NCBI GenBank assembly: GCA_036557285.1
Contig: DATBHW010000042.1
Location: 59,412 to 123,411, forward strand
Direction: 5' to 3'
DNA from: Ktedonobacterales bacterium
GTDB taxonomy: Bacteria; Chloroflexota; Ktedonobacteria; Ktedonobacterales; DATBGS01
DNA length: 64,000 bases
Below the pieces are notes generated by a model. That model had not been told where the DNA came from. It was given only the letters and a program-made list of their open reading frames with translations, and searched no databases. Below are positions 4,128 to 52,279 of this stretch, piece after piece; position 1 is the first letter of the stretch; each line of letters begins with the position of its first letter. A program made the position numbers and the translations under genes.

Positions 4128-5735
4128 ATGCCAGGAGACACCACCGGAATGACCCTTGAGCAGCAAATCGGCCAGCTTTTTATGGTTGGCTTCGACGGAA
4201 CCAGCGCCTCGCCAGGGATCATTGACCTGATTCAGCGTTACCATGTTGGCGGCGTCATATTTTTTTCGCGCAACATCGCCAGCGCCCAGCAGGTCTCGGC
4301 GCTGACTCGCAGCCTGCAAGGAGCAGCAAAGGCAGCCGGGCATCGTTATCCCCTGCTCATCAGCATTGACCAGGAAAACGGCATGGTGCGGCGGCTGGGG
4401 CCGGATATGACCGCCTTTCCGGGCAGCATGGCCCTGGGCGCCATCGGCTCAGAGCAGATAACCTATGACGTGGCCCAGGCCACCGGCGAAGAACTCAAAG
4501 CCGTCGGCATCAACATGAACCTCGCGCCAGTTGCCGATGTCAACAACAACCCTGCCAATCCGGTCATCGGCGTGCGCTCGTTCGGCGAAGACCCCCAGCA
4601 GGTGGCCCGACTCACCGCCGCTGCGGTGCGGGGCTATCGCGCTGCTGGTATTATCACTGCGATCAAGCACTTTCCGGGTCATGGCGACACCGCAACGGAC
4701 TCTCATCGCGCCCTGCCAGTTGTCCCACACAGCATGGAGCGCCTGTCTGCCGTCGAACTCGTCCCCTTCAAGCGCGGCATCGAGGCGGGCGCAGACACGG
4801 TAATGATCGCGCACATCTCCCTGCCCGCCATTATGCCGCCCGATGGGCTGCCTGCCACCGTATCGCCCGCCGTCATACATGACCTGCTCCGCGAGCAGCT
4901 TGGCTATGAGGGCGTCGTCATCTCCGACTGTATGGAAATGGACGCCATCACCAAAACCGTTGGCGCTGAACAGGGATCGATACTGGCGCTGAAGGCTGGG
5001 ACCGATCTGGTCCTGGTCTCGCATCGCTATGACCGCCAGCGCGCCAGCATCGAGGCCGCACTAGCCGGAGCCAGATCAGGCGCGCTCCCCCCGGAAACCA
5101 TCAGCCAGGCCGTAGAGCGCGTGCTGCGCCTCAAGCAGCGCCTTGTATCCTGGGATGACGCCCTGCCCGCCGCGCCGCCAGCCTGGGCCGGCAGCGAAGC
5201 ACACCAACAGCTTGCTCAGCGCGCCTACGAACAATCAACCACCCTCGTCAGAAACGAAGATGCGCTGCTGCCGCTCCGCCTGGACCCGTCAGATGCGCTT
5301 CTCGTCCTCTTGCCCAGGCCCACTACTTTTTCCCAGGCTTCAGACAAAGCGCATCATCACAAGTTCTTTGCTGAAATCATCCGCCAGCGCCACAACGCGG
5401 TAAACATCCTCTCTCTTTCTCCTCAGCCAACCGAGGCCGAATACCAGCGGGCGCTGCAAGCCGCCAGGAGTGCAAAAGCAACCATCGTGCTCACTATGAA
5501 CGCCAATCTGGACAAACACCAGACACAACTTATGCAAGCCTTGCTCCAGACAGACGCACCCGTCATAGGCGTTGCTGTGGGCAATCCGTATGATTTGCTG
5601 GCTTTTCCGGCCCTGCGCACCTATCTCGCCACCTATGAATACACCCAGCCAGCCCTGGCGGCGGCGGCGCGCGTCCTCTTTGGCGAAATACAACCGCAAG
5701 GACGCTTGCCGGTGAGCCTCCCAGGACTGGCATAG
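4128..5735 (+). CDS. nagZ: Glycoside hydrolase family 3 beta-N-acetylhexosaminidase
   Basis: QIGQLFMVGF and KHFPGHGDTATDSH motifs, with the VISDCMEM nucleophile region. AAAGGAG lies 7 nt upstream of the ATG at 4128. Confidence 0.85.
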   Translation: MPGDTTGMTLEQQIGQLFMVGFDGTSASPGIIDLIQRYHVGGVIFFSRNIASAQQVSALTRSLQGAAKAAGHRYPLLISIDQENGMVRRLGPDMTAFPGSMALGAIGSEQITYDVAQATGEELKAVGINMNLAPVADVNNNPANPVIGVRSFGEDPQQVARLTAAAVRGYRAAGIITAIKHFPGHGDTATDSHRALPVVPHSMERLSAVELVPFKRGIEAGADTVMIAHISLPAIMPPDGLPATVSPAVIHDLLREQLGYEGVVISDCMEMDAITKTVGAEQGSILALKAGTDLVLVSHRYDRQRASIEAALAGARSGALPPETISQAVERVLRLKQRLVSWDDALPAAPPAWAGSEAHQQLAQRAYEQSTTLVRNEDALLPLRLDPSDALLVLLPRPTTFSQASDKAHHHKFFAEIIRQRHNAVNILSLSPQPTEAEYQRALQAARSAKATIVLTMNANLDKHQTQLMQALLQTDAPVIGVAVGNPYDLLAFPALRTYLATYEYTQPALAAAARVLFGEIQPQGRLPVSLPGLA

Positions 5736-5840
5736 ATCAGAAACCATTTGCTGATGGGAATGGGCCTTGCCTGTTGTTGTTGAAACTGCTATACTCCCAT
5801 TACGCCGACCAGGCAAAGCTCACAGGGGAGGAAAAATGTC

Positions 5841-7859
5841 GTGGCACAAGATGGGCAAGAAATTGCTGGCTACAAGCTGCTCAAGAAAATTGGCGAAGGT
5901 GGCATGGGGCAAGTCTTCCTTGCCGACCAGCTTCGTCTGAAGCGCCAGGTTGCCATCAAACTGGTGCATCTGGATGTCAAAGCCGATGTCCCGCCTGGGG
6001 GCGCCGAACCGGCGGAAGAGTTGACACGCGAGGCCGAGGCGCTGATGGCGCTGGAGCATCCGCATATTTTATCGCTGTATGATACCGGACGCGAGGGGGA
6101 CACCGCCTATCTGGTAATGCCCTACATTCCTGAAGGCTCGCTTCAGGACGCGCTGCGTTCTGGGCCACGCCAGCAGCTTCACCTCCCCTTGCCGCCTGGG
6201 GAAGCTCTGCTGTATATCGAGCAGGCTGCATCCGCCCTCCAGTACGCGCATGACCGCAACTTCATCCACCGCGACGTGAAACCAGCTAATTTTCTGATTC
6301 GTTCGCTTTCACGCTCCAGCGGAGGCGGGCGTGGCATGAAGCGTCTGCACCTCTTTCTCGCCGATTTTGGCCTTTCCAAGTTTCTCGCCTATTCCACCAA
6401 TACCACCCACCTCTCCGGCACGCCCACCTACATGGCTCCAGAGCAGTTCCAGGGCCACGCCAGCCCTGCCAGCGACCAATATTCGCTGGCGATCCTCTTC
6501 TTTTATCTCTTGACCGGCGATCTCCCCTATCGCGGCTCGCCCGTTGAACTCATGTTTCGTCATCTAAACGACGCCCCCCCATCTGTCGCCTCCCTGGTGA
6601 AAGGCATCCCTGAATCGCTTGCCAGCATCGTCCAGCGCGGCATGGCAAAGACACCAGAGGAACGTTATCCATCCGTAGGAAGCATGGCGGAGGCTGCCCG
6701 TGAGGCGCTGGCGGAGGCCGGCCTGGTCCCTTCGCACGACTCTTTTCCCATCATGCCAGCCGTTCGAGCCGCTGACCTGCAATCGGAAAAGCCCAGGGAA
6801 AAGCCCAAAGAATCCGGGCAAGATATTCCCCTGGCCCCGACGGCTGTGCTGGGGTCTTCAGGGGTGTCCTCTGCCGCCACCATCATCACCGACGATCTGG
6901 TAACATCAAGAGACCCTGTGGAGCCGAAGGCGCAGGCTGCCGAGAGTTCGCTGCCCACGATTGCAGGAAAGGTGGACGAAGGGTCACTTCCGACGCTTCC
7001 AGTCGAAAAACCCAGTCAGCCCCCCAAAGCGCCCAAAGGCGACAAACCAGCTTCGGAGGGTCGGCCACGCCGACGCGGTTTGATGGTCGCACTGGCCGCG
7101 CTGGCTGCCGTCGTGCTGTTGGGCGCTGTCCTGGGCGGCGGAGCGTTCATGCAAATAGGCCCATTCCAAAAGAGTACGCCGCAAAATAATACACCCGTCG
7201 CTCAGATTACTCAGCAGCCGACATCTGCGCCAACCACCACAGCCACGCTCGGACCAACACCCACACCCACGCAAGTGTTGGCAGCCGACCTTCTCACCCG
7301 CATCCTCGCGCAAAGCCCATTCGTCACCGTTGATCTGAACCAGGGGTCTGGACCGTGGGACGGGCCAGCCCTGCTTGATAAAAATGGGCGTGCTGATCTG
7401 CGTACCCCACCAGGCAGAGTAAATCTTACAAATGGCATCCTGACCTACAGCGCCCGGACGTTCCCGACTCCCCTGGCTATCGCCGTTGATTTGACGGCGG
7501 CATCCGACCGAGAGTTCTATATCCTGCTGGATACCACTACTACCGGAAAGAGCGGCCATCTCTATTATCGCCTGCGATTCACCAACAGCGCAGCCCCGCA
7601 GGCCGCGCACTCAACGAATAATAGAAACTTTACTAACGATGGCACAGCCTCCGGTGGAAGCACAGCCTGGACCGATGGTAAGAAGCATACGCTTATCCTC
7701 GTACTGGACGGCACACGCCTCTTGTCCTACTTCGATAACCATCCTCTGGTGGACGCGAAGATTCCTCTGCCTAACGCGCAGGCAAGGCTCATCCTGGCTA
7801 CCCGCGACTTTGCCTCGATAACAGGGATTCGCGCCTACCGCGTTCCGCAGACGACATAA
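5841..7859 (+). CDS. Ser/Thr protein kinase with one TM segment and an extracytoplasmic beta-sandwich-like domain
   Basis: GTG start preceded by GGAGG. Kinase motifs: GEGGMGQVF, AIK, HRDVKPANFLI, ADFGLSK, GTPTYMAPE. A Pro/Thr-rich linker and the TM segment LMVALAALAAVVLLGAVLGGGAF follow. Confidence 0.9.
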   Translation: MAQDGQEIAGYKLLKKIGEGGMGQVFLADQLRLKRQVAIKLVHLDVKADVPPGGAEPAEELTREAEALMALEHPHILSLYDTGREGDTAYLVMPYIPEGSLQDALRSGPRQQLHLPLPPGEALLYIEQAASALQYAHDRNFIHRDVKPANFLIRSLSRSSGGGRGMKRLHLFLADFGLSKFLAYSTNTTHLSGTPTYMAPEQFQGHASPASDQYSLAILFFYLLTGDLPYRGSPVELMFRHLNDAPPSVASLVKGIPESLASIVQRGMAKTPEERYPSVGSMAEAAREALAEAGLVPSHDSFPIMPAVRAADLQSEKPREKPKESGQDIPLAPTAVLGSSGVSSAATIITDDLVTSRDPVEPKAQAAESSLPTIAGKVDEGSLPTLPVEKPSQPPKAPKGDKPASEGRPRRRGLMVALAALAAVVLLGAVLGGGAFMQIGPFQKSTPQNNTPVAQITQQPTSAPTTTATLGPTPTPTQVLAADLLTRILAQSPFVTVDLNQGSGPWDGPALLDKNGRADLRTPPGRVNLTNGILTYSARTFPTPLAIAVDLTAASDREFYILLDTTTTGKSGHLYYRLRFTNSAAPQAAHSTNNRNFTNDGTASGGSTAWTDGKKHTLILVLDGTRLLSYFDNHPLVDAKIPLPNAQARLILATRDFASITGIRAYRVPQTT

Positions 7860-11528: not shown

Positions 11529-11660
11529 ATGTATCGCCGTCTCAGCGGCCACTTGTAGCGCCGCCTTCCAGGCGTCCATCCGCCTGTACCGCCGCCGTCC
11601 CTGGCGGCGAACCGCCGCGCTCGCGCGGACGCTGCCCCCTCCAGGCAAGCGCCACGCTTG
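11529..11660. repeat. REP-like cluster between glpK and glpF
   Basis: Three core-related units: GTATCGCCGTCTCAGCGGC, GTAGCGCCGCCTTCCAGGCG and GTACCGCCGCCGTCCCTGGCGGC. A GC-rich palindrome CGCGCTCGCGCG is also present. Confidence 0.75.
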
Positions 11661-11678
11661 TTCAGCAAGTGGTATTAC

Positions 11679-13214
11679 CTAAACAGTAAGGGCCTCGCGT
11701 TTTTGCTGCTGCGGCGTCTCCCAGTTGCGGGAGCGATCCACCGCCCGCTTCCAGTTCGCGTATAGTGCTTCGCGCTGATCTTTGCCCATGCGCGGCTCAA
11801 ACACCTGATCGAGCGCCCAGTGTTCGATCAGTTCCTGCTGATTACGCCAGAAGCCCGTCGCCAGGCCAGCCAGATACGCCGCGCCCTGCGCCGTCGTCTC
11901 GGCGACCCTGGGCCGCTCCACTGGCACGCCCAGAATATCCGCCTGGAATTGCAGCAGCAGATTATTGGCAACCGCGCCGCCATCCACGCGCAGCCGCCGC
12001 AGCGGCTCCTGGCTGTCCAGCGTCATCACTTCAGCCACGTCGCGGGTCTGATAGGCTATCGCTTCCAGCGTGGCTCTGGCGATATGCCCGGCAGTCGTCC
12101 CGCGTGTCAGGCCGACAATGGCGCCGCGCGCCCGGTCATCCCAATAGGGCGCGCCCAGCCCCACAAAAGCCGGAACCAGATAGACCCCGCCATTATCCGG
12201 CACAGTACTCGCCAGACCCTCCACCTGGCTGCTGCTCTTGATAATCCCCAGGCCGTCGCGCAGCCACTGCACCGCTGCCCCGGTGATAAAAATGCTCCCC
12301 TCCAGCGCGTAGGTCACATTGGGTCTGGCCGCATCCCCCAACCCCCAGGCGATGGTTGTCAGCAAGCCGCTGGGAGAAGGGACCGGCTTGCCGCCCGTGT
12401 TCATCAACATAAAGGAGCCAGTACCATAGGTATTTTTAGCCTGGCCCGCTTCATAACACACCTGGCCGAACGTAGCCGCCTGCTGATCGCCCGCGTCCCC
12501 GGCGATCTTGATCGGCCCACCAAAGAACTCCGAGGCCGCTTCTCCGTAGACGGCGCTCGATGGCATCACCTGCGGCAGCATCTGGCGTGGCACATCCAAT
12601 TCGTTGAGGATGACATCATCCCAATCCAACCTCTGGATGTTATAGAGCAGCGTGCGCGAAGCGTTAGAAAAGTCGGTGACATGCGCCTTGCCCTTCGTAA
12701 GCCGCCAGATCAAGAAGGTATCAACGGTGCCAAACAGAACCTCGCCCCGGCGGGCGCGTTCGCGCGCGCCCGGCACATGATCCAGAATCCATTTGACCTT
12801 CGTACCCGAAAAGTACGCATCTGTGACCAGGCCAGTGCGCGCCCGAATCTCTTTATCAAAGCCCTTCGCCTTCAGTTCATCGCAGATCGGCGCTGTCAGA
12901 CGGCTCTGCCAGACAATCGCGTTGAAGATCGGCCTGCCGGTATCGCGCTCCCACACAATCGTCGTTTCACGCTGATTGGTAATGCCAATCGCGGCAATAT
13001 CCGCAGCAGACGCGCCCGCGTTGTTTACCACCTGCCGCGCCACCTGAAGCTGCGAGTTCCAGATGTCCTCCGGGTCATGCTCGACCAGCCCTGGCCTGGG
13101 GTAAATCTGCGGAAACTCCTGCTGCGCCGTCTTCACAACAGCGCCATCGTGATTAAAAAGGATCGCGCGGGAACTGGTTGTACCCTGGTCCAGCGCCAAC
13201 ACATACTGAGGCAT
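11679..13214 (-). CDS. glpK: Glycerol kinase
   Basis: 511 aa. [48 protein letters not shown], a full-length FGGY/GlpK signature. Confidence 0.95.
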
Positions 13215-16142: not shown

Positions 16143-17027
16143 TCACGGCCAGGAGAGACCCATCGGGTTCGGAATGGGAACCCCGCCCCTTTCCACGATC
16201 AGCCCGCTCAATGGCCTGACAAGCTCAAGGAGCCGGGCCAGCTTCTCTTCTCCTAAATGACGCCAGGGCGGCATAGCTAACTCGTTGGTACGCTCCTCGA
16301 TAGCATTCCGGCCAGCCCAACCACGCTCCGTGAGTTTGCCTGTTTCGTCGAGCCAGCCTCGGCTCACCAGGCGCACCTGCGCGGCTTCCCACTCCTCATC
16401 GCTCCAGCCGCGACTGGGCTGGACCGTCTCCCTGGGCGCGCTGCCAGCCCCCACCAGCGTCAGGTGCGCTTCGCAGCCATCCAGTCCCTCAGCCAGCAGG
16501 GCGGCCACATGGCCGTCGCCTCGGAACTCGCGCAGCAGCGTCGCCGCGTGCCAGAGCGCCAGATGGGCCGCCGCAGGCCAGGGCAGCGCGAGATGCGCCG
16601 CAAAAAGCGGGCGGCCAGCCACGCTGCATCCCTCAATCGCCTGGCGCGCCAGATCAGCCGCTTCAGCCATCTCAGGGGCGCTTACCCGCTCGCCCAACAG
16701 TCGGCGCAGCGCCGCGTCGGCCCCCTCGAAGCGAGCCGCAAGCACCCGCTCAGGCGTCGAAAACTGCCAGGCATCGGGAATAGCCCGCGCCACCATGCGC
16801 GGATGAAAATTAAAGAAGGTCGCGGCCACTACGTTCGCCGACACCGGCCCCATCGCCGCCGTCCGCGAAGCAAAGTAGCCCATCCAATAGCCCTTCAGGC
16901 CAGCGGCAGTATAGCCTTCGCGGGCCTCCGGGGCAAAATAAACCATCGCGTGATATGGCTCCAGCGTCTTCCACGCCAGCCGGGCGGGATGCTGCTCCCA
17001 GGTGTTTGATGCAGATATGCTGCTCAA
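16143..17027 (-). CDS. Conserved hypothetical helical protein, translationally coupled to the AlkZ-like gene
   Basis: 294 aa. LEPYHAMVYFAPEAREGYTAAGLKGYWMGYFASRTAAMGPV..FFNFHP. Shares a 4-bp overlap (17024-17027) with the upstream gene. I cannot assign a confident family. Confidence 0.6.
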   Translation of the reverse strand: MSSISASNTWEQHPARLAWKTLEPYHAMVYFAPEAREGYTAAGLKGYWMGYFASRTAAMGPVSANVVAATFFNFHPRMVARAIPDAWQFSTPERVLAARFEGADAALRRLLGERVSAPEMAEAADLARQAIEGCSVAGRPLFAAHLALPWPAAAHLALWHAATLLREFRGDGHVAALLAEGLDGCEAHLTLVGAGSAPRETVQPSRGWSDEEWEAAQVRLVSRGWLDETGKLTERGWAGRNAIEERTNELAMPPWRHLGEEKLARLLELVRPLSGLIVERGGVPIPNPMGLSWP

Positions 17028-18175
17028 GATGATGCCTCCAATCCATTTTCCATATAGACTACTTCAGCCGGAGCGCCGAGGAAGACGCCCAACCGATCAG
17101 CCTCCTCCTGGATACTCCCCTTGATGGCGGCATCCAGCGAAATAAAGGGATCAATTCGTACCACCACCCGCTGGCTGCGCTTCTCGTGCCGCCAGACTCC
17201 AGCAATGCGACCACGCGCCAGCAGCACCGGAGAAATCCAGCCCGACTGCCGGGAAATCTGATCTTTGACTGAACCAGGGAGCAGATGCTCAATATGAGGA
17301 AGGACACCAATCAGGTAGGCATCAAATCCAGGCAGCAGGCGCGCTGGTGGTGGAAGGGGCAGATTTCCCACCTGTTCGATCATCGAGGTCAACGCCCACG
17401 CTTTCCAGCCGTCAACCGAAACCTCCGTGATCTCATCACCAAGCCGACGGAATGCCTCCCGAACCTCGCGGAGATACCTCGACCCCCACCAGTGCGCAAA
17501 ATCTTCAGGCGTCGCCGGGCCATACGTGGCAAGATAACGCCGCGTAATCGTGATTAGCATCTCATCCGCATCATAATCCTGCCAGGAGCCTATCCATTGG
17601 TCAGGCCGAACAAAGGTCACATGCTGCTCTTGCTTCGGCCCGAAACAGAGATAGCCATGATACGCCGCAGGCTTGAGCAGTTCGCCCCACCCGGAGCGCA
17701 GTACCGCTTCCACCTGCGCCAGGCCGGTAACACGGGCCACTTCTGCCGCCAGTTGCTCGCGGGTCAGGCAGCGTCCATCAAGCGCGATCCTCACCCTCTC
17801 AATGATCGCCAGAAGCTCCTCGCTGCTGAGGTTGTAATATTTCAGCCACGCGCCCGTAATACGGTGGCGAGTTCGCAGCGCAGCGGCCACCAGCGGAAAC
17901 TCTGCGGCATCGAATAGATGTAGCGTCCCGCGCATAGACCACGTTTTGACGAGTGAACGCTGCTTCCAGAGCAGTGCTGACAGCGTATCTGATGGCATAT
18001 CCTGCACACGCGCCCACAGCACAAGCTCCGCTGACGAAAGCACCTGGGCCTGAATACCAATAAGCGCGCCCGCGACTTCAAGCAGACGCTCAAAGGCCAC
18101 TCGCTCGCTGAGATGGTGCTGCACCAGTCGCCAGGCGCAAACTTGCTCCCAGGTCAGTACAAAAGGGTGCTTCAC
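17024..18175 (-). CDS. Winged-helix HTH_42 superfamily protein, AlkZ-like DNA glycosylase (Q-x-Q type)
   Basis: 383 aa. LTWEQVCAWRLVQHHL..VAGALIGIQAQVLSSAELVLWARV contains the Q-A-Q catalytic-motif pattern described for AlkZ-type interstrand-crosslink glycosylases. Confidence 0.7.
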   Translation of the reverse strand: MKHPFVLTWEQVCAWRLVQHHLSERVAFERLLEVAGALIGIQAQVLSSAELVLWARVQDMPSDTLSALLWKQRSLVKTWSMRGTLHLFDAAEFPLVAAALRTRHRITGAWLKYYNLSSEELLAIIERVRIALDGRCLTREQLAAEVARVTGLAQVEAVLRSGWGELLKPAAYHGYLCFGPKQEQHVTFVRPDQWIGSWQDYDADEMLITITRRYLATYGPATPEDFAHWWGSRYLREVREAFRRLGDEITEVSVDGWKAWALTSMIEQVGNLPLPPPARLLPGFDAYLIGVLPHIEHLLPGSVKDQISRQSGWISPVLLARGRIAGVWRHEKRSQRVVVRIDPFISLDAAIKGSIQEEADRLGVFLGAPAEVVYMENGLEASS

Positions 18176-18185
18176 TCCAACCCCA

Positions 18186-18500
18186 TCAATCTACCAGATC
18201 TCCTGGCGCTTCATACAGGCCGCTTGAACACGCAGAGATACGTGGATGTCCACCTATCTTTCCAGCCCGCAGCCGGGTTAGTGATCTGAATGTCTCCATT
18301 ATCCCCACTATTACGGGCTGAATGGAGACCAACTCCCAGCCTTGCCGCCCAAAGTCATCCAACAGCGGCATCAGCGCCTGGGCAGCATACATGGGAAACT
18401 TCTGCCCAGGCCATTTCTCTTGCAGAAATGACGCCTGCTGCCTGGCATCAGCCTCCAGGTACACAACCAGATGCTCCCAGGTAACGACATCGGCTGCCAT
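18186..18500 (-). CDS. Small hypothetical protein
   Basis: GAGGAAA lies upstream of the ATG at 18500 (MAADVVTWEHLVVYLEAD...). The longer track start (18602) is a translated REP palindrome. Confidence 0.5.
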   Translation of the reverse strand: MAADVVTWEHLVVYLEADARQQASFLQEKWPGQKFPMYAAQALMPLLDDFGRQGWELVSIQPVIVGIMETFRSLTRLRAGKIGGHPRISACSSGLYEAPGDLVD

Positions 18501-18521
18501 GCTGTTTTCCTCGCTTCCCAC

Positions 18522-18635
18522 GTGTACCGCCGCCGTCTCGGCGGCCATTCGTACCGCCGAGCCTGCGCGGACGTTGCCTCTTGCAGCGCAACGTTCCGGC
18601 AACCCAACGACGGGCCGCCGAGACGGCGGCGGTAC
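18522..18635. repeat. 114-bp palindromic REP pair (MITE-like)
   Basis: GTACCGCCGCCGTCTCGGCGGCC ... GGCCGCCGAGACGGCGGCGGTAC, with a nested hairpin ACGTTGC-N10-GCAACGT. Confidence 0.8.
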
Positions 18636-18665: not shown

Positions 18666-21600
18666 TTACGGCGTGATGCGCACTTCCAGTGGGCCAGGGT
18701 TCCCCGCCTGCTCCTCCTTGAACATATTGCGCACCAGCACTGCCCAGTGCTGCGCAGGCACATCCTTCGCTCTCGCGCTGCCTGGCGCTGCATGCCCGTT
18801 GCCGTCTGCCATCTCCCCTGGCAGCAGCGTCGGGCCAATAGCAGCCAGCGGCACGCGCAGTTCGGTCTTTTCCGCGAAGTCCAGCGCAAAGCGTTTCACC
18901 TGGCCGCCGCCAACCACGCGCGCCAGCCCATCTGGCAGGCAGACGTGCGCCACCAGACACGGCTCGTAGCGCGGCACACGAATCACCAGATCGAGCGCGT
19001 CGCCCACCTTGAAGACCGGCGCGGGCCTGCCATCCTTCTCCAGCGAAACCTCCACGTTCAGCGCGCTCTGGAAGGTATTCCAGTCCTCCACCAGTTCCGC
19101 CGTCACCTCCACCGTCAGCACACCCTTCAGGCAGGCTACCGATTCCACTCGCTCGGTGGACTCGATGGCTTCCGCCAGCGTCATCTGCTTGCCATTCAGT
19201 TCCAGCGCGTCCGCGCTGCCGCCGGTCACGCCAATGCCCGCCTCGCGCAGACCAATCATCAGCGCCAGCATCGCTCCCGTATCAACGGTGCTATAGAGAA
19301 TGCCCGCTTCGTTAGTCTGGCTGGTCAGATAATTGGTCGCTTTGATGACCAGCGGCAGATCGCGTGGTTCGCCTCCCGCCAGCAACGCGGCAGCCGCATA
19401 AGCCGTCTCCTCGCGTGAGCCGACGGCAGCGCCATGCAGCAGATAGGACGGCTGATCGCGCGGCACACGGACAACTGTTTGCCCATCCTGCTCGCTCAAA
19501 CGGCTGCGAACATACTCAGCCGCCTGCGCCTTCTTGGCGGCGCTGGGGCTGCTTGCCAGAAGCAGATAGGCGTCGTGGCAGTCGTTCACCCGCTCCGGCG
19601 GATACGTGATTTTGTAGACTTTGGCGGCGTCGCTTGCCATGCGACGAATCTCATTGAGAGCTTCGGCCATCGCCTGGCTGATCCCGCTCAAATGCTCTGG
19701 CCTGGGCAAATTCAACTGATGCCGCGTCCCGCCCGGCGCGTAATGATGGTCTGGCCCCCTGCCGCCGCCTTCATTCGGGGGATACATCGTATAACCCCTT
19801 CCCGGCAGATACATGCTCTGAATGCGCTTGACATAGGCCAGCGACGAGCTTTCGTATTCGTCGCGCAGTTCAGGCGTATCCAGGTTGGCGACATAGCCCG
19901 CCACCATCGCCAGCAGCTTGACCGAACTCTGCTCGATGCAGCCATGCGGATACGCGCAGGCCCCCTGCACAAAGACCTGGAAGGGCCGCTCCAGCCCCGG
20001 CAGCACGCGCAGGCTTTGCGCGCCAGCCTCTGCTCTGGTCAGCGTCTCGCCCGCCGTCAGCAGGCGCGTGCGCTTCACGATAGAGCGTATCTGCCCCGGC
20101 GGCGTCACAAAGCGTTCGCTCACATCCGCCTCGCCCGTCACCGCATCCTTCACAATCGCCGTAAATGCCCCTGGCTGCGCGGGGAAGCGCACCACCGCGC
20201 CGCTCTTGACCTCTTCGCCTGGCGCAAGGCGGCGACCATCCACCCACAGCGGTACTGGCTCGCCATCGCGCTGCACCTCCACGCGCGCCCGGCCACTGGC
20301 CGCGCCAACATACAGCGTCCCCTGCGCCTGATCGCCAGGGGAGACGAACGGCGAAAGCGTCAGATCACCATAAACGGGTAGCTGCGCCTCAAGCTGCGCC
20401 TCCTCGCGCGCCCAATCCAGCCCGGCCAGCCCAAACGCCTCGATACTATACGTCGTCAGTGCGTCGCCCAGCTTCACCGCCACCTCAGCCTGCCCCTTGA
20501 CATACACGATGCTGTTGTGAATCACCTCTGGAAACTCGACGCGAATCGGCGTGAGTTCGGCCTTCGCGGCCTGGGCAGGCTCGGCAGCACTCTTCTCAGG
20601 ACTGATAGTAATAGCCCGCGCCATGACCTCGTAGGGCGCAGCCTGCGGAGCAGCCGCTACCATTGCCATAGCCCGGCCACCCATGCGACCCCATCCGCCC
20701 CTTCCCGCAGGCGCGGCGGGCGGCATGCCAGCAAATGTCATCATAGGAGGCGCGGGCGGCAGGGGCGGCTCGTAGCCAGCGGCGTAGAGACTGGCCCCTG
20801 GAGCGCCGATACCTAGCCTGCCACGCTCTGTTGTCAGCGCCGCCTTGATGCGCGCCGCCAGTTCCACCTGCGGGTCGCTTGGCGTGATCAACCGCTGATC
20901 TTTGATAATCACCTGCACCGGCACAACCTGATCAGGCCGGTTTGTGCGCAAGATGATTTTGACGCGCTCGCCCGGCTTCGCTTTGCTGGGCGCTCTCGTC
21001 TCCAGTTTCAGACCGCTGGGACGGAGAGCGGCGCACCAGCCTTCCCAGGCTTTGCCCTTCACAAACGCCCCCACCAGCAGCAGGCCATACGGCGCGGGTA
21101 CAGTGAGCGTCAGCCGCGCGCCCGACGCGATATTCGCCTGCGTCTTGATCTGGGCTGTCTCGCCTGTGGTGGGCGCAATCATCACCGCGCGCAGCAGATC
21201 AACCTGCTCGCGCGCCACCAGTTCCACCTCTTCGCCTATCACCTGGCTCACCAGAAAGGGCGACGTATTCATACCGCGCGGCGAAACGTACAGGCCCCGG
21301 CAGACCTCCGCGCCGGGCAAAGGCAGCAGACTCATCTCCTGCGCCTGCCCTAGTTCGCTGATCGTCAGCGTCTCGCGGCGCTCCTGCTCGGACCCCTTCA
21401 GAGCCACCGTCGCGGTGCGCTCGCCCGCGACCACATTGAGGGTATAGGGACCAGCCCCGGTCAGTTCAACCTTGCCGGAGCAGCGCCCCCGCGCATCGGT
21501 CATCAACTGCTGGCGTTTGCCCACGCGCTGCCCGCGCTCCTGAAGCTCAACCTCCACCGCGCCGCTGTACGGCTGCCCAAAGGCGCGCAGCAGCAACGTG

Positions 21601-22223
21601 TAACTGAGCGCGCTGCCCTCCAGCGTCTGCCCCACCAGATCAGCCGTCAACGGGGCTAGGCGATACTCAGCCACCTCAAAGCGGCATGATCCCGCCTCAG
21701 TCCCATCCAGGCTGGCCTCGTATTCGCCTTCTGGCAAGCCAGCAATAGAACGCAGGCAAACGCCATACTCGTCAAGAGCAATGGCATAGCTGGCGTAGTG
21801 ATTGCCGCTCAGCCGAAGGGTCAGCTTCAATTCCTGATTGGGGCGCTGCGGCGAGGCGATCAACAGGCGCACGGCATCTTTGCCCGCCCGATACAGCGCC
21901 TTGTCGCTGGTCAGCGAGATCAGGTCGGGGCAGATAAACGAACTGCCCGCGATTTGCGCGCCCGGCAGCGTCACCTCTTGCTCGCCAAGAAAGACTATCG
22001 CGCCGCCCCGCTTGAACTCATCAATCGTAGCCTGACTAAAACCCAATTGGTCAACGCCGCGCACTGCCTCCTCGATCCAGCCAGGCCGGAAAAAGGCGAA
22101 ACGCTTACCGACCATCACCAGATCGCCTACGCGCTGGGCCAGCCGCCAGCCATCCAGCGTCACACGCTTGTCGCGCAGCCCGGCGGATGGGGGGGTTCCC
22201 TCGTCTGTCGTCTCTGCCATCAT
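18666..22223 (-). CDS. Alpha-2-macroglobulin-family thioester-containing protein with no recognisable signal peptide
   Basis: 1185 aa. MG-domain hallmarks: DKALYRAGKDAVRL, FEVAEYRLAPL and RVEFPEV. Thioester box YPHGCIEQSSVKLL (CIEQ codons at 19929-19940; Cys at about residue 762). The C-terminal receptor-like domain carries CLPDGLARV. The N-terminus MMAETTDEGTPPSAGLRDKR is hydrophilic. Confidence 0.8.
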   Translation of the reverse strand: MMAETTDEGTPPSAGLRDKRVTLDGWRLAQRVGDLVMVGKRFAFFRPGWIEEAVRGVDQLGFSQATIDEFKRGGAIVFLGEQEVTLPGAQIAGSSFICPDLISLTSDKALYRAGKDAVRLLIASPQRPNQELKLTLRLSGNHYASYAIALDEYGVCLRSIAGLPEGEYEASLDGTEAGSCRFEVAEYRLAPLTADLVGQTLEGSALSYTLLLRAFGQPYSGAVEVELQERGQRVGKRQQLMTDARGRCSGKVELTGAGPYTLNVVAGERTATVALKGSEQERRETLTISELGQAQEMSLLPLPGAEVCRGLYVSPRGMNTSPFLVSQVIGEEVELVAREQVDLLRAVMIAPTTGETAQIKTQANIASGARLTLTVPAPYGLLLVGAFVKGKAWEGWCAALRPSGLKLETRAPSKAKPGERVKIILRTNRPDQVVPVQVIIKDQRLITPSDPQVELAARIKAALTTERGRLGIGAPGASLYAAGYEPPLPPAPPMMTFAGMPPAAPAGRGGWGRMGGRAMAMVAAAPQAAPYEVMARAITISPEKSAAEPAQAAKAELTPIRVEFPEVIHNSIVYVKGQAEVAVKLGDALTTYSIEAFGLAGLDWAREEAQLEAQLPVYGDLTLSPFVSPGDQAQGTLYVGAASGRARVEVQRDGEPVPLWVDGRRLAPGEEVKSGAVVRFPAQPGAFTAIVKDAVTGEADVSERFVTPPGQIRSIVKRTRLLTAGETLTRAEAGAQSLRVLPGLERPFQVFVQGACAYPHGCIEQSSVKLLAMVAGYVANLDTPELRDEYESSSLAYVKRIQSMYLPGRGYTMYPPNEGGGRGPDHHYAPGGTRHQLNLPRPEHLSGISQAMAEALNEIRRMASDAAKVYKITYPPERVNDCHDAYLLLASSPSAAKKAQAAEYVRSRLSEQDGQTVVRVPRDQPSYLLHGAAVGSREETAYAAAALLAGGEPRDLPLVIKATNYLTSQTNEAGILYSTVDTGAMLALMIGLREAGIGVTGGSADALELNGKQMTLAEAIESTERVESVACLKGVLTVEVTAELVEDWNTFQSALNVEVSLEKDGRPAPVFKVGDALDLVIRVPRYEPCLVAHVCLPDGLARVVGGGQVKRFALDFAEKTELRVPLAAIGPTLLPGEMADGNGHAAPGSARAKDVPAQHWAVLVRNMFKEEQAGNPGPLEVRITP

Positions 22224-22402
22224 ATCTCTCCGTTTCTCTCTCTATCTCCTGGAAGGACGACTGATTGCCACCTGTGATTCCCCAAACAACACCATGCCTA
22301 TCCAGTCTACCAGAGCAAAGCAAAGATAACAAACGAAGAAACGGAGATGCTATAATGGACTCAAGAACCACTTGCGCAGCTAGCCGAACCGAGGGAAACC
22401 CC

Positions 22403-23008
22403 ATGATGCAGCACGAGACCCTAACCCTGTGGGGCGAGGTCGTCACTGACGCCCCCTATCCAATGAGCTTTGAGGAATTCGAGCGCCTGCCAGATGATGG
22501 CTGGCATTATGAATTAGTGCGAGGGAGATTAATTCGTATGCCCCCACCAGGAGGTCAGCATGCTAAGATCGCAGCAAAATTGATGGCTGCACTGCTCACC
22601 TATGCAGAGCAATCGAACCTGGGGGACGTGCTGGGCGAGATGGGCTTTCGCCTGCAAATACCTGGTGAATCAAAGCCAATCGAACTAGAACCGGATATAT
22701 CCTTTGTGCGAACTGGACGTGCGCCAGCCCCGGATAGTCCAGAATACCCCAAAGCCTGGAGCCTGGCCCCTGACCTGACCGTAGAGATAGCTTCACCCGA
22801 TCAATACCGACCTGAGATGGCCGAGAAGGCCCGACAGTACCTGGCCGCTGGCGTGCGCATCGTCTGGGTTCTCTGGCCGAAGCGTCAGCAAGTGGATGTC
22901 TGGCGCGCTGGCTACGACATACCCATTGATACCCTGGCGCTGAACGAGGCGCTGGATGGGCTGGAAGTGTTGCCCGGCTTCTCTTACCCCCTCTCAAAGC
23001 TCTTTTAA
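22403..23008 (+). CDS. Uma2-family (DUF820) restriction-endonuclease-fold protein
   Basis: MSFEEFERLPDDGWHYELVRGRLIRMPPPGGQHAKI..EPDISFV..PDLTVEIASP..KARQYLAAGVRIVWVL. GAGGGA precedes the ATG at 22403. Confidence 0.8.
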   Translation: MMQHETLTLWGEVVTDAPYPMSFEEFERLPDDGWHYELVRGRLIRMPPPGGQHAKIAAKLMAALLTYAEQSNLGDVLGEMGFRLQIPGESKPIELEPDISFVRTGRAPAPDSPEYPKAWSLAPDLTVEIASPDQYRPEMAEKARQYLAAGVRIVWVLWPKRQQVDVWRAGYDIPIDTLALNEALDGLEVLPGFSYPLSKLF

Positions 23009-50229: not shown

Positions 50230-50587
50230 GTTGCGCTTGTTCCTCACTTTACCAAAAATTGCCTGTCTTTTTTCCTTGACAGAAGGCATTGTAGTCCATG
50301 ACTTCGGGTGATCGCTAGCAGTTCATTCTACTGCAAGAACTGACACTATTGCCAGCGTTTCTTGCGGTTGCCCGTAAATGGGCGCAATCTGGCCGCCAAA
50401 TTACCCCCTTGTGCTTGCTCAGTAGCTCTGCTAAGATTTTGCCCGAAGCAGACGCGCAAGCCTCGGACGGACCTGGGGGGCAGCGCGCGGTCAGGGCGTG
50501 GAAAAGGATCACGCGCCGCCTTGAGCGCGGCACGCTTCGCCTCTATTGAACATACTGTTGCCTGCAACGCAGGAAAGGAATGCGGCA

Positions 50588-52279
50588 ATGGCCAGCAAAA
50601 ATCCAGAGAAGGATGCACAGGAAAGCACAGCGGATACCAAGATAGAGGTAGCCGTGCTGGCGGATAACAGCGGAGCGGAGGGGCAGGCCGAAGTGGTCGT
50701 GGATGAGGCTGGGGAGCATGCGGAGCAGCTAGAAATAGATCGTCCTGAGGCGACGGCAGAGGAGGCAGCGAGCGCAGAGAGCGGTGAGCAGGAAGCGCCC
50801 GATGAAGCTGAAGCCAACGTCCTCGTTGTCAGCGCCGCTGCAAGTGGCGAAGACGAACAATCAGAAACATTAGCGGAACTCGCGGACGAACTGCCCGCCG
50901 ATGCGTCTTCAGACGAAGAATCCCATGCTGAACCCGAAGGCGCTGAAGCGGAACCCAGCGAGGCCGCTGAAGCAACAGAGGAACAGGCTGCCGAAGAGCC
51001 AGCAGCCGAAGAAGCAGCAGCGGTAGCTGAGGCAGAGAGCGCAGCCGCAGAGGCGGAAGCGCCCAGCATGGAAGCTGAAGCCGCCGAAGCGAGCGAAGAA
51101 GCAGCAGCGGCTGAGGAAGCTGCCGAAGCAGTGGCTGAAGTATCTGCTATGGAGGAAGCCCCTGCGGAAGCTGAGGCTGCCGAAGTTGAAGCGGAAGCCC
51201 CTGCGGCAGAAGCCGAAGCGGCTGAAGCAGCCGAGGAGGCGCCTGCGGCTGAGGAGGCTGAAGCCGTTGCGGCGGCTGAAGAAACTCCTGCGGCTGAGGA
51301 GGCCGAAGCTCCTGTCTCCGAAACCGAAGCGGCTGCCGAGGCTGCAACACTGGAGGAAGCGGCTGAAGTCTTTGAGGAGGCCATCGCAGAAATCAGGGAA
51401 GCGATAGAGGCAGCCGAGGAGGCACACGCCGAGGCCGAAGCGGAAGCCGCCCCGGAAGCAGCGGCTGAGATGGAAGCCGAGTCTGCCGAAGCAGCGGCTG
51501 AAGTCGAGGAGGCAGCCGAGGCTGTAGCCGAAACTGAGGAAGAAGCCGAAGCAGTAGCCGAGGTCGAAGCTGAGGAAGAAGCCGAAGAGGTAGCCGAGGT
51601 AACTGCTGAAGCCGAAGCCATCGCTGAAGAAACAGCAGTGGTAGCTGAGGCCGAAGCCGTCGCCGAGGCCGCTCAAGAGGCAATAGAGGAGGCCGAGGTC
51701 CAGACCGAAGCCGCCCAAGAAGCAGAGGCCGAAGCTGAGGTTCCTTCAGCAGAGGCAGAGGAAGCAGAGGCAGTGGCCGAAGCGCCCGCAGCGGAAGAAG
51801 CCGCCGCTGAAGCCGAACCTGCCGCTGAGGCAGAGGAAGCGCCAGCAGAAGAGCCTGCCCCCGCAGCAGCGAGCGCAGAGGCCGCGCGAGAACCCGTCAC
51901 GATTGTTGCCCATCAATTGATCGCCGTCGGGCCGAACCGCGAACCCCGTATTCTGCTGCACCGTTATCACGGGCGAACCGGTCAGCCCCTGGGTGGAGCG
52001 CCTATGCTCTGGGATACCGCCCGCGCCGCTCGCTTCTTCCATCAAAAAGCGGTCAGCGGCCAGGCAAGCGGGCATGAAACGCTCGTGCATATCCCTGAAG
52101 AGCAAACTGTCGTCATCATGGCTGGTGATGGCGACATCATCAGCGTCCATGAAGAGGTTGCCAGAGCCATCTTCCCAGCCATCGCGCAGCATCGCGCGTC
52201 CTGGGCAGAAGAGCAATGGGACATCCCAGCCGAATATCACCAGGCATCCCCCGCCCTCTCATTCGATGATTGGGCATAA
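50588..52279 (+). CDS. Polyanionic Glu/Ala-rich low-complexity protein with a globular C-terminal domain of about 130 aa
   Basis: ATG at 50588 after GGAAAGGAA. Roughly 430 residues are almost only E, A, plus some V/P/T/S (..AEAEAAEVEAEAPAAEAEAAEAAEEAPAAEE..). After the first ~50 residues I see only one basic residue (R in EIREAI). The C-terminal part begins EPVTIVAHQLIAVGPNREPRILLHRYHGRTG... Confidence 0.7.
   Translation: MASKNPEKDAQESTADTKIEVAVLADNSGAEGQAEVVVDEAGEHAEQLEIDRPEATAEEAASAESGEQEAPDEAEANVLVVSAAASGEDEQSETLAELADELPADASSDEESHAEPEGAEAEPSEAAEATEEQAAEEPAAEEAAAVAEAESAAAEAEAPSMEAEAAEASEEAAAAEEAAEAVAEVSAMEEAPAEAEAAEVEAEAPAAEAEAAEAAEEAPAAEEAEAVAAAEETPAAEEAEAPVSETEAAAEAATLEEAAEVFEEAIAEIREAIEAAEEAHAEAEAEAAPEAAAEMEAESAEAAAEVEEAAEAVAETEEEAEAVAEVEAEEEAEEVAEVTAEAEAIAEETAVVAEAEAVAEAAQEAIEEAEVQTEAAQEAEAEAEVPSAEAEEAEAVAEAPAAEEAAAEAEPAAEAEEAPAEEPAPAAASAEAAREPVTIVAHQLIAVGPNREPRILLHRYHGRTGQPLGGAPMLWDTARAARFFHQKAVSGQASGHETLVHIPEEQTVVIMAGDGDIISVHEEVARAIFPAIAQHRASWAEEQWDIPAEYHQASPALSFDDWA

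Follow-up and report, generated by a model that had tools for sequence, protein, structure and literature searches.

The subject of this study is a gene on the minus strand of a 64,000-nucleotide stretch of DNA from a Ktedonobacterales bacterium (contig DATBHW010000042.1), referred to here as the window. Its 1185-residue product is placed in the alpha-2-macroglobulin (A2M) superfamily as a separate, third bacterial type. The protein keeps an intact thioester motif behind a hypervariable bait-like region, starts without an export leader, and belongs to a large, unannotated family in which we found no leader at all. By analogy with known A2Ms, we consider that it acts as an intracellular, bait-triggered thioester protein that would covalently capture or mark endopeptidases, a reading to which we give a probability of about 0.5. 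In several sister lineages the codon for the thioester cysteine is TGA, which is likely to be read as selenocysteine.

A preliminary description of this DNA, made from the letters alone, had proposed a leaderless A2M-like protein of 1185 aa at 18666..22223(-). The open reading frame (ORF) is there as described, and its translation contains the strings quoted at the time (FEVAEYRLAPL at aa 182-192, RVEFPEV at aa 561-567 and GCIEQ at aa 761-765) together with the bait-like insert rich in proline, alanine, methionine and glycine. A metagenome-assembled genome assigned to the Ktedonobacterales contains an identical protein (P0001, VH599_12425). The gene is real: it has more than 217 homologues, almost every one of which carries a Ktedonobacterales or Ktedonobacteraceae label and measures 1130-1250 aa, and dN/dS among relatives is 0.08-0.24. 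Its start is fixed equally well. An in-frame TAG lies 7 codons 5' of the ATG at 22223, and a GGAGAG Shine-Dalgarno sequence ends 3 nt before it. An upstream in-frame start encoding a hidden signal peptide, which would have told against the preliminary description, does not exist, and an N-terminal extension of this kind is impossible since the TAG closes the frame.

Membership of the A2M superfamily emerges from profile and fold comparisons. Searched with the single sequence, Pfam returned sub-threshold matches only (TED_complement, E 0.061, aa 938-985; A2M PF00207, E 0.14) and none to MG2 (PF01835), an NCBIfam scan of the window protein gave no match, and phmmer against the PDB gave noise only. 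A profile built from 26 family members (A1) matched human A2M in the PDB at E 3e-6 in two collinear stretches. The first aligns RVEFPEV with human VRKYFPET, just after the human bait, and the second covers the C-terminal half of the thioester domain (TED). The same profile also gives a weak match around the thioester of E. coli YfhM, classical Gram-negative A2Ms are 24-30% identical over aa 573-868 (tblastn), and the family members P0246, P0177 and P0197 exceed the cut-off for PF00207. Structure prediction, named in the preliminary description as a check, agrees: an AlphaFold2 model with a mean per-residue confidence (pLDDT) of 73.5 and a predicted template modelling score (pTM) of 0.52, so that inter-domain packing is only moderately confident, was matched by Foldseek over its full length to A2ML1, CD109, Salmonella and E. 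coli A2M, TEP1, C5 and human A2M at E 1e-29 to 1e-28. At fold level, as judged from this model, the window protein is a distant member of the A2M/TEP/complement superfamily. What had been anticipated for the A2M and TED profiles thus holds for the family profile and the fold, with the single-sequence Pfam matches staying below threshold; of the proposed macroglobulin (MG) signatures, FEVAEYRLAPL falls within the MG-like sandwiches of the model, without a match to Pfam MG2.

The resulting layout of the protein is as follows, with the evidence for each feature in brackets.

18666..22223, minus strand: whole gene, leaderless A2M/TEP-fold thioester protein of 1185 aa (ORF and translation, fold match).
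22227..22244, minus strand: start-site context, with the in-frame TAG at 22242-22244 and the GGAGAG Shine-Dalgarno at 22227-22232 (sequence).
21939..22172, minus strand: family-specific N-terminal alpha/beta domain, aa 18-95 (alignments A1 and A2, stand-alone model).
21399..21926, minus strand: two MG-like beta-sandwich domains, aa 100-275, including FEVAEYRLAPL at 182-192 (model secondary structure, Foldseek).
21258..21398, minus strand: highly conserved linker KGSEQERRETLTISELG...SLLPLP, aa 276-322 (many invariant columns, pLDDT <50).
20814..21257, minus strand: two further MG-like domains, aa 323-470, the second forming the N-terminal half of the bait-bearing MG6 equivalent (model, Foldseek).
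20556..20792, minus strand: bait-like region, aa 478-556, disordered and rich in A, P, G and M (pLDDT, identity, length variation).
20523..20543, minus strand: post-bait motif RVEFPEV, aa 561-567 (profile-to-PDB alignment with human VRKYFPET).
20001..20555, minus strand: beta-rich region after the bait, aa 557-741 (model, Foldseek, tblastn).
19239..19991, minus strand: helical TED, aa 745-995, all-helical in the model (model, profile match to the human A2M TED).
19929..19943, minus strand: thioester motif G761-C762-I763-E764-Q765, with the Cys codon TGC at 19938-19940 (invariance).
18669..19052, minus strand: C-terminal beta-sandwich resembling a receptor-binding (RBD)/MG8 domain, aa 1058-1185 (model, Foldseek).

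The thioester motif and the bait-like region differ sharply in conservation. The intact thioester box noted in the preliminary description is present, and G761, C762 and Q765 are invariant in 26/26 sequences of alignment A1; more broadly, 102 of 103 Cys-bearing homologues keep C-x-E-Q. The bait behaves in the opposite way. Between aa 478 and 556 mean pairwise identity falls to 0.16 and length varies from 52 to 108 aa, as against identities of 0.52-0.81 in the MG, TED, CUB and RBD regions, and the segment from aa 490 to 565 is disordered in the model (pLDDT <50). Right after this region comes the R-x-x-FPE motif, which aligns with human A2M and whose R561, F564 and E566 are invariant across the 26 sequences.

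The remaining domains fit around these two elements. The N-terminal domain, modelled alone, reaches a pLDDT of 74.5, and a fold search against the PDB found no match for it (best E 2.5); its mean pairwise identity is 0.37, and it contains a conserved strand, G39-x-x-F42-x-F44, that is not a signal peptide. Few segments of the protein are as well conserved as the linker KGSEQERRETLTISELG...SLLPLP (mean pairwise identity 0.70). Its motif is also kept in the consensus of the wider family, which has domain insertions nearby. On our interpretation of the model, aa 557-741 may comprise the second half of MG6, MG7 and the first half of a CUB domain, the CUB being assigned from model secondary structure only. 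The receptor-like C-terminal domain that had been proposed appears in the model as the beta-sandwich listed above, and its VRNMFKEE motif is invariant. This domain also carries a second hypervariable insert at aa 1133-1157 (18753-18827), with a mean pairwise identity of 0.14 and a length of 6-60 aa.

No family member examined shows a sign of export. Judged by a hydrophobicity heuristic and not by SignalP, 0/330 family proteins (119 from Ktedonobacteria and 211 from the wider family) have a signal-peptide-like hydrophobic region, and neither a Tat motif nor a membrane helix was seen in the members examined. All 119 Ktedonobacteria homologues start hydrophilic, the strand G-x-x-F-x-F being their sole moderately hydrophobic stretch; their maximum Kyte-Doolittle value over 10 residues is at most 2.23, compared with 3.1-3.8 in the S53 lipoproteins encoded next to some of them. 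The controls were classical A2Ms from the same genome scan, in which they swamped the hits since one search pattern was the thioester motif that they share. These proteins measure 1680-1950 aa, their thioester falls at residues 1200-1470, and a signal peptide, anchor or lipobox is present in 11/11 of their ORFs with a complete 5' end. The hydrophilic N-terminus without signal peptide or lipobox reported for the window protein is therefore borne out by the heuristic and by the upstream stop, and orthologues that uniformly carry signal peptides, which would have implied a mis-called start, are the opposite of what is seen.

The family extends far beyond the Ktedonobacteria. A search with the A1 profile against 1.84 billion cluster representatives (clustered at 50% identity) returned 668 clusters at E<=1e-3, of which 363 reach E<=1e-30; most are 1100-1350 aa in length and align end to end, while a metagenome scan returned 6 loci. 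Named members from the Myxococcota include Minicystis rosea, Archangium lansingense, Polyangiaceae and Byssovorax, and other carriers belong to the Acidobacteriota, Candidatus Xenobia/Eremiobacterota and Riflebacteria; annotation is almost always 'hypothetical protein'. Common to the wider family are the N-terminal domain, the R..FPE motif, the C-terminal RNMF.EE motif and a thioester-type motif written x-C-C-E-Q-T, in which C729, C730 and Q732 are invariant (alignment A2). Several members carry additional domains identified by Pfam, namely a protein kinase with FHA (P0123), FHA (P0137), ankyrin repeats (P0177), MshEN (P0197) and a MerR-type helix-turn-helix (P0246), and precomputed annotations add TPR and more MshEN and FHA fusions. 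Zinc-ribbon modules also occur among the fusions. Because the fused domains are typical of cytoplasmic signalling, the family is probably cytoplasmic. The wider family has no shared gene partner in the two loci examined (L043 and L044).

These observations bear on the choice, left open in the preliminary description, between non-classical export and an intracellular trap. Ktedonobacter, a soil bacterium that grows as filaments and forms spores, gives a Gram-positive stain (PMC3236041) and consequently has no periplasm like that housing the known bacterial A2Ms (PMC5764988). A missing leader might then be put down to the cell envelope of the host. The strongest available argument for work inside the cell comes from the wider family, with its missing leaders and its signalling fusions, and this also removes the worry that leaderlessness is a quirk of monoderm export. 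We lean towards an intracellular location because homologues without a leader are found in diderm Myxococcota and Acidobacteriota, whose classical A2Ms do have signals, and because domains of cytoplasmic type are fused to the A2M body with no membrane helix in between; export is kept as a rival.

By analogy with monomeric bacterial A2Ms, the protein could work in four steps. A thioester between Cys762 and Gln765 would form on folding and stay buried. An endopeptidase would then cut the exposed, fast-evolving bait loop at aa ~478-556, the resulting conformational change would expose the thioester, and the thioester would acylate a nearby nucleophile, so that the protease is covalently captured or tagged. 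The analysis itself establishes the fold, the conserved motif, the disordered and hypervariable bait, and a lack of signal peptides and membrane helices throughout the members examined; we infer cytoplasmic location, bait cleavage, thioester formation and protease trapping alike from sequence, model and analogy. Candidate targets would be phage proteases, proteases delivered by competitors, or endogenous ones. Several points weigh against intracellular capture. Every characterised A2M-family protein is extracytoplasmic (PMC5764988), non-classical export is compatible with the sequence as the heuristic reads it, the domains of the model are packed with moderate confidence, and no protease partner is conserved beside the gene in the window clade. 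Finally, the synteny found in one related clade could point to an extracytoplasmic role.

This synteny belongs to the alternative in which the protein is a classical extracytoplasmic protease trap that leaves the cell without an N-terminal signal and protects the wall of the filament from foreign or self proteases. The N-terminal domain might hold an unrecognised secretion signal, a dedicated secretion system might carry the protein out, or lysis of hyphae might release it; being conserved and without a known fold, the N-terminal domain could be a targeting module. Precedent favours such a role, since no characterised A2M works in the cytoplasm and the partner of Type I is a cell-wall enzyme (PMC5764988). 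In addition, all seven distinct Ktedonobacteraceae-type loci with an upstream flank (L001, L002/3, L005, L006, L008, L009 and L027/28) have one or two divergent S53-like lipoprotein peptidases upstream, and most have a CHAP-domain protein, a cell-wall hydrolase, downstream (L001, L002/3 and L005-L009, not L027; L035/L036 have it too), and both kinds of neighbour are envelope proteins. In L001, for example, the S53/S8-like peptidases, with lipoprotein signals, lie at 5215-7857 and the CHAP gene at 11569-12720. However, this arrangement is limited to one family-level clade and absent from the window clade, and its genes are divergent or 130-240 nt from the A2M-like gene and not obviously co-transcribed; it may reflect common descent. 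The absence of a signal peptide from 330 homologues, including those of diderm phyla where a membrane would have to be crossed, and the kinase, FHA, MerR, MshEN and ankyrin fusions without an intervening membrane helix also speak against export, which we regard as improbable, if still to be reckoned with. In a single further locus (L029), a leaderless sedolisin, a 100-aa ORF and the A2M-like gene form an overlapping chain.

The fusions can be read in another way. The protein might be an intracellular TEP- or complement-like sensor or tagging module and not a protease inhibitor, with the bait-like segment serving as a regulatory or recognition loop. A trigger, proteolytic or other, would expose the thioester, after which a target is marked covalently or a signalling module is switched. 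The fusions to a kinase with FHA, to FHA alone, to MerR and to MshEN suggest that the A2M body could be a signalling input; the protein has two hypervariable loops, the bait and the insert in the C-terminal domain; and TEP1, CD109 and C5 match the model no less strongly than inhibitor A2Ms do. Against this, the window protein itself has no signalling domain, and its bait stands before R..FPE exactly as in inhibitor A2Ms. The family matched no PADLOC defence model, no relatives were found on viral contigs, and the few loci inspected showed no defence-island setting. We therefore think a sensor unlikely.

That the thioester and bait are relics, leaving a non-reactive scaffold, a mis-called start or a decaying gene, is largely refuted and highly improbable: the sub-threshold Pfam domain matches and the thioester-less Type II protein MagD, which shows that the fold works without the bond (PMC5764988), would allow it, but the invariance of G761, C762 and Q765, the conservation of CxEQ across hundreds of clusters, the apparent recoding of the Cys position to selenocysteine in place of its loss, the low dN/dS (0.08-0.24), and the upstream stop and Shine-Dalgarno that fix the start all contradict it.

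The recoding concerns the window clade itself. Fourteen homologue clusters from this clade, 68-82% identical and 740-793 aa long, end at ...ACKYPHG, one residue before the thioester cysteine (in 13/14 the ending reads ...GACKYPHG). In six distinct DNA loci (L030, L031, L032, L037/38, L039/40 and L041/42) the codon at this point is TGA; the positions homologous to 19938-19940 of the window are L030:10221-10223, L031:9998, L032:9498, L037:12314, L039:4855 and L041:10874. Past the TGA the frame stays open for 435-439 codons to the normal C-terminus, where the contig allows, with dN/dS 0.08-0.22 and dS up to 0.9. Between the TGA and the next ATG, a span of 30 nt, every substitution is synonymous, which argues for translation through the TGA and not for re-initiation. 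TGA serves as an ordinary stop in 9/38 neighbouring genes.

In all six loci a hairpin follows 14 nt after the UGA, with a 6-bp stem, a GGUC tetraloop and a stability of about -7 kcal/mol (GGCCAA-GGUC-UUGGCU at L030:10238-10253 and equivalent positions in the other five). It resembles a selenocysteine insertion sequence (SECIS), and its GGUC loop has the sequence found at the tip of the SECIS of E. coli fdhF. Pairing is kept at all positions, with one compensatory change from C-G to U-A (L041/42) and two one-sided changes, although covariation over six sequences has low statistical power. The hairpin is missing from the Cys forms of the window clade, the window included, and a scan of ~600 kb of related DNA for an ORF-TGA-ORF arrangement with a hairpin returned essentially only these sites. 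No Rfam model for SECIS matched, and neither the window nor the loci, which are contig fragments only, yielded a tRNA-Sec.

Given the SECIS-like hairpin after the TGA and the purifying selection on the frame beyond it, the acyl-carrying position is likely to hold selenocysteine; this is the parsimonious reading of the TGA forms, with decoding deduced from these features. A neighbour-joining tree intermingles TGA and Cys forms, puts TGA forms on the basal branches and pairs the window protein with a TGA form as its sister; the TGC of the window may thus be a recent one-base reversion. The residue two after the site tracks the switch, reading U-I-Q-Q in 6/6 TGA forms versus C-I-E-Q (Gln at L030:10227-10229 versus Glu764 at window 19932-19934). 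An extended lower SECIS stem was considered as the cause of this E-to-Q change and rejected, as the stem is not conserved across the six sequences. The sole Cys form with Q, P0025 (GCIQQ), still has a similar hairpin (L027:10293-10340), which suggests a recent switch. Separately, a fragment (P0245) ends ...KYPFG and hints at TGA forms in the lineage of P0025 too. We count the alternation of the Cys codon with TGA and a SECIS-like hairpin as pointing to selection on the warhead. No paper in the literature searched joins selenocysteine with A2M or thioester proteins, selenoesters appear there solely as synthetic ligation reagents, and nothing useful was found on Ktedonobacteria and selenium.

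Taken together, these threads allow a more speculative proposal, which we hold to be doubtful at present. The protein could be a cytoplasmic counterpart of A2M/TEP/complement innate immunity, in which the bait is a tripwire cut by the proteases of phages or injected effectors, and the window clade has a selenoester warhead. The freed thioester may then capture the intruder covalently or switch on kinase, FHA, MerR or MshEN signalling. The warhead may have been upgraded from thioester to selenoester (G-U-I-Q-Q), with the GCIEQ of the window as a recent Sec-to-Cys reversion. Selenoesters are known in synthetic peptide chemistry for much faster acyl transfer. An internal selenoester in a natural protein would be the first, to our knowledge and in the literature searched.

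Comparison with known systems sets the family apart. Bacterial A2Ms have been described as two types, both periplasmic in Gram-negative bacteria (PMC5764988). Type I has the motif CXEQ and is paired with pbpC, a cell-wall enzyme gene, whereas the Type II protein MagD, which has no CXEQ, is made with a signal peptide of 21 residues, resides in the periplasm in association with the inner membrane, and is encoded in the six-gene mag operon (PMC5764988). Bacterial homologues also carry additional N-terminal MG0/NIE domains (2026 review, PMC12939704). The window protein shares with Type I (ECAM/YfhM, Sa-A2M) the MG domains, bait, CUB/TED and C-terminal beta-sandwich (Foldseek E~3e-29) and an identical motif, Y-P-[HFY]-G-C-[IV]-E-Q, and its monomer size makes a snap-trap mechanism plausible. 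Unlike Type I, however, it has no lipobox or signal peptide (the 11/11 controls have one), is 1185 aa long with the thioester at 762 (versus 1680-1950 aa and 1200-1470), and has about four MG-type domains before the bait instead of about eight, with an unrelated N-terminal domain. The window protein lacks the extended N-terminal region of Type I, in which MG0/NIE and MG1-MG6 belong to a total of about 1650 aa. Its host stains Gram-positive, and no pbpC adjoins the gene, as had been stated at the outset; no penicillin-binding protein gene occurs in any orthologous locus examined. With Type II (MagD/YfaS type) it has in common a bacterial origin, the A2M fold and a bait region, but it keeps CXEQ and lacks a signal peptide and a mag-like operon. 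We treat it as a separate type because it is without the export signal, pbpC pairing and extended N-terminus of Type I and without any of the features that mark Type II. Neither annotation nor literature for this third type was found.

More distant systems offer partial parallels. Eukaryotic A2M, TEP and complement proteins provide the best structural matches (E 1e-29 to 1e-28) and have a hypervariable bait, but they are secreted, glycosylated and disulfide-rich, with MG1-MG6 before the bait; their identity to the window protein is only 10-14%, and the latter has no anaphylatoxin domain or processing sites. Adhesins of the SfbI type have an unrelated fold with a non-A2M thioester domain and no MG domains or bait, and are secreted and wall-anchored. 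These Gram-positive thioester-domain adhesins (SfbI; PMC4450167) resemble the window protein in using an internal Cys-Gln thioester for covalent attachment and in their monoderm host. Bacterial selenoproteins with Cys homologues, such as FdhF, are like the TGA forms in having an in-frame TGA at the reactive Cys, a hairpin downstream and interleaved Cys and TGA forms. Unlike here, known selenocysteine is a redox centre; in the TGA forms it would be an acyl carrier, making a selenoester.

The surroundings of the gene in the window give little further guidance. Its neighbours are an unannotated 138-aa ORF, an AlkZ-like glycosylase, HTH_67, MFS, Uma2 and DUF1706/DinB, so that the small unknown protein and DNA-repair genes of the preliminary description are present, but they are not conserved. 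The locus of an 80%-identical relative (L026) reads DUF1706, AzlC, AzlD, the gene, HTH_67 and MFS, without the 138-aa ORF, AlkZ or Uma2, and L030 has a similar layout. The DNA-repair context is therefore incidental and without functional meaning, and the 138-aa ORF, the AlkZ-like gene and Uma2 were rejected as operon partners, being absent from L026 and L030. A full-length Uma2 endonuclease gene, at 22265-23008 (+), sits where L026 and L030 have AzlC/AzlD. Relative to the same two loci, the 138-aa ORF and AlkZ-like gene form an inserted pair downstream of the gene at 17024-18602 (-). The pattern, as read from the sequence, indicates local rearrangement around the gene.

Two features elsewhere in the window were recorded in passing. 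A 577-aa ORF at 50546-52279 (+) consists mostly of extreme Glu/Ala-rich low complexity followed by a short globular C-terminus, and it coincides with an anomaly in local AT-skew (0.30) and GC-skew. A tRNA-Glu(ttc) called by ARAGORN at 12761-12842 (-) lies inside the glycerol kinase ORF at 11679-13214 (-) and is probably a false positive.

The window protein represents a third, large and unannotated group of bacterial A2Ms, leaderless, compact, with the thioester motif kept, and spread across monoderm and diderm phyla. Its interest rests on the size and uniform leaderlessness of this family, on the fusions to signalling domains, and on the apparent exchange of cysteine and selenocysteine at the warhead. 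The alternation of Cys and TGA at the thioester position amounts to a natural experiment on warhead reactivity, and may reveal a selenoester. If the protein does act intracellularly, the principle of bait and covalent capture known from animal humoral immunity would extend to the bacterial cytoplasm, raising the question of which proteases are guarded against.

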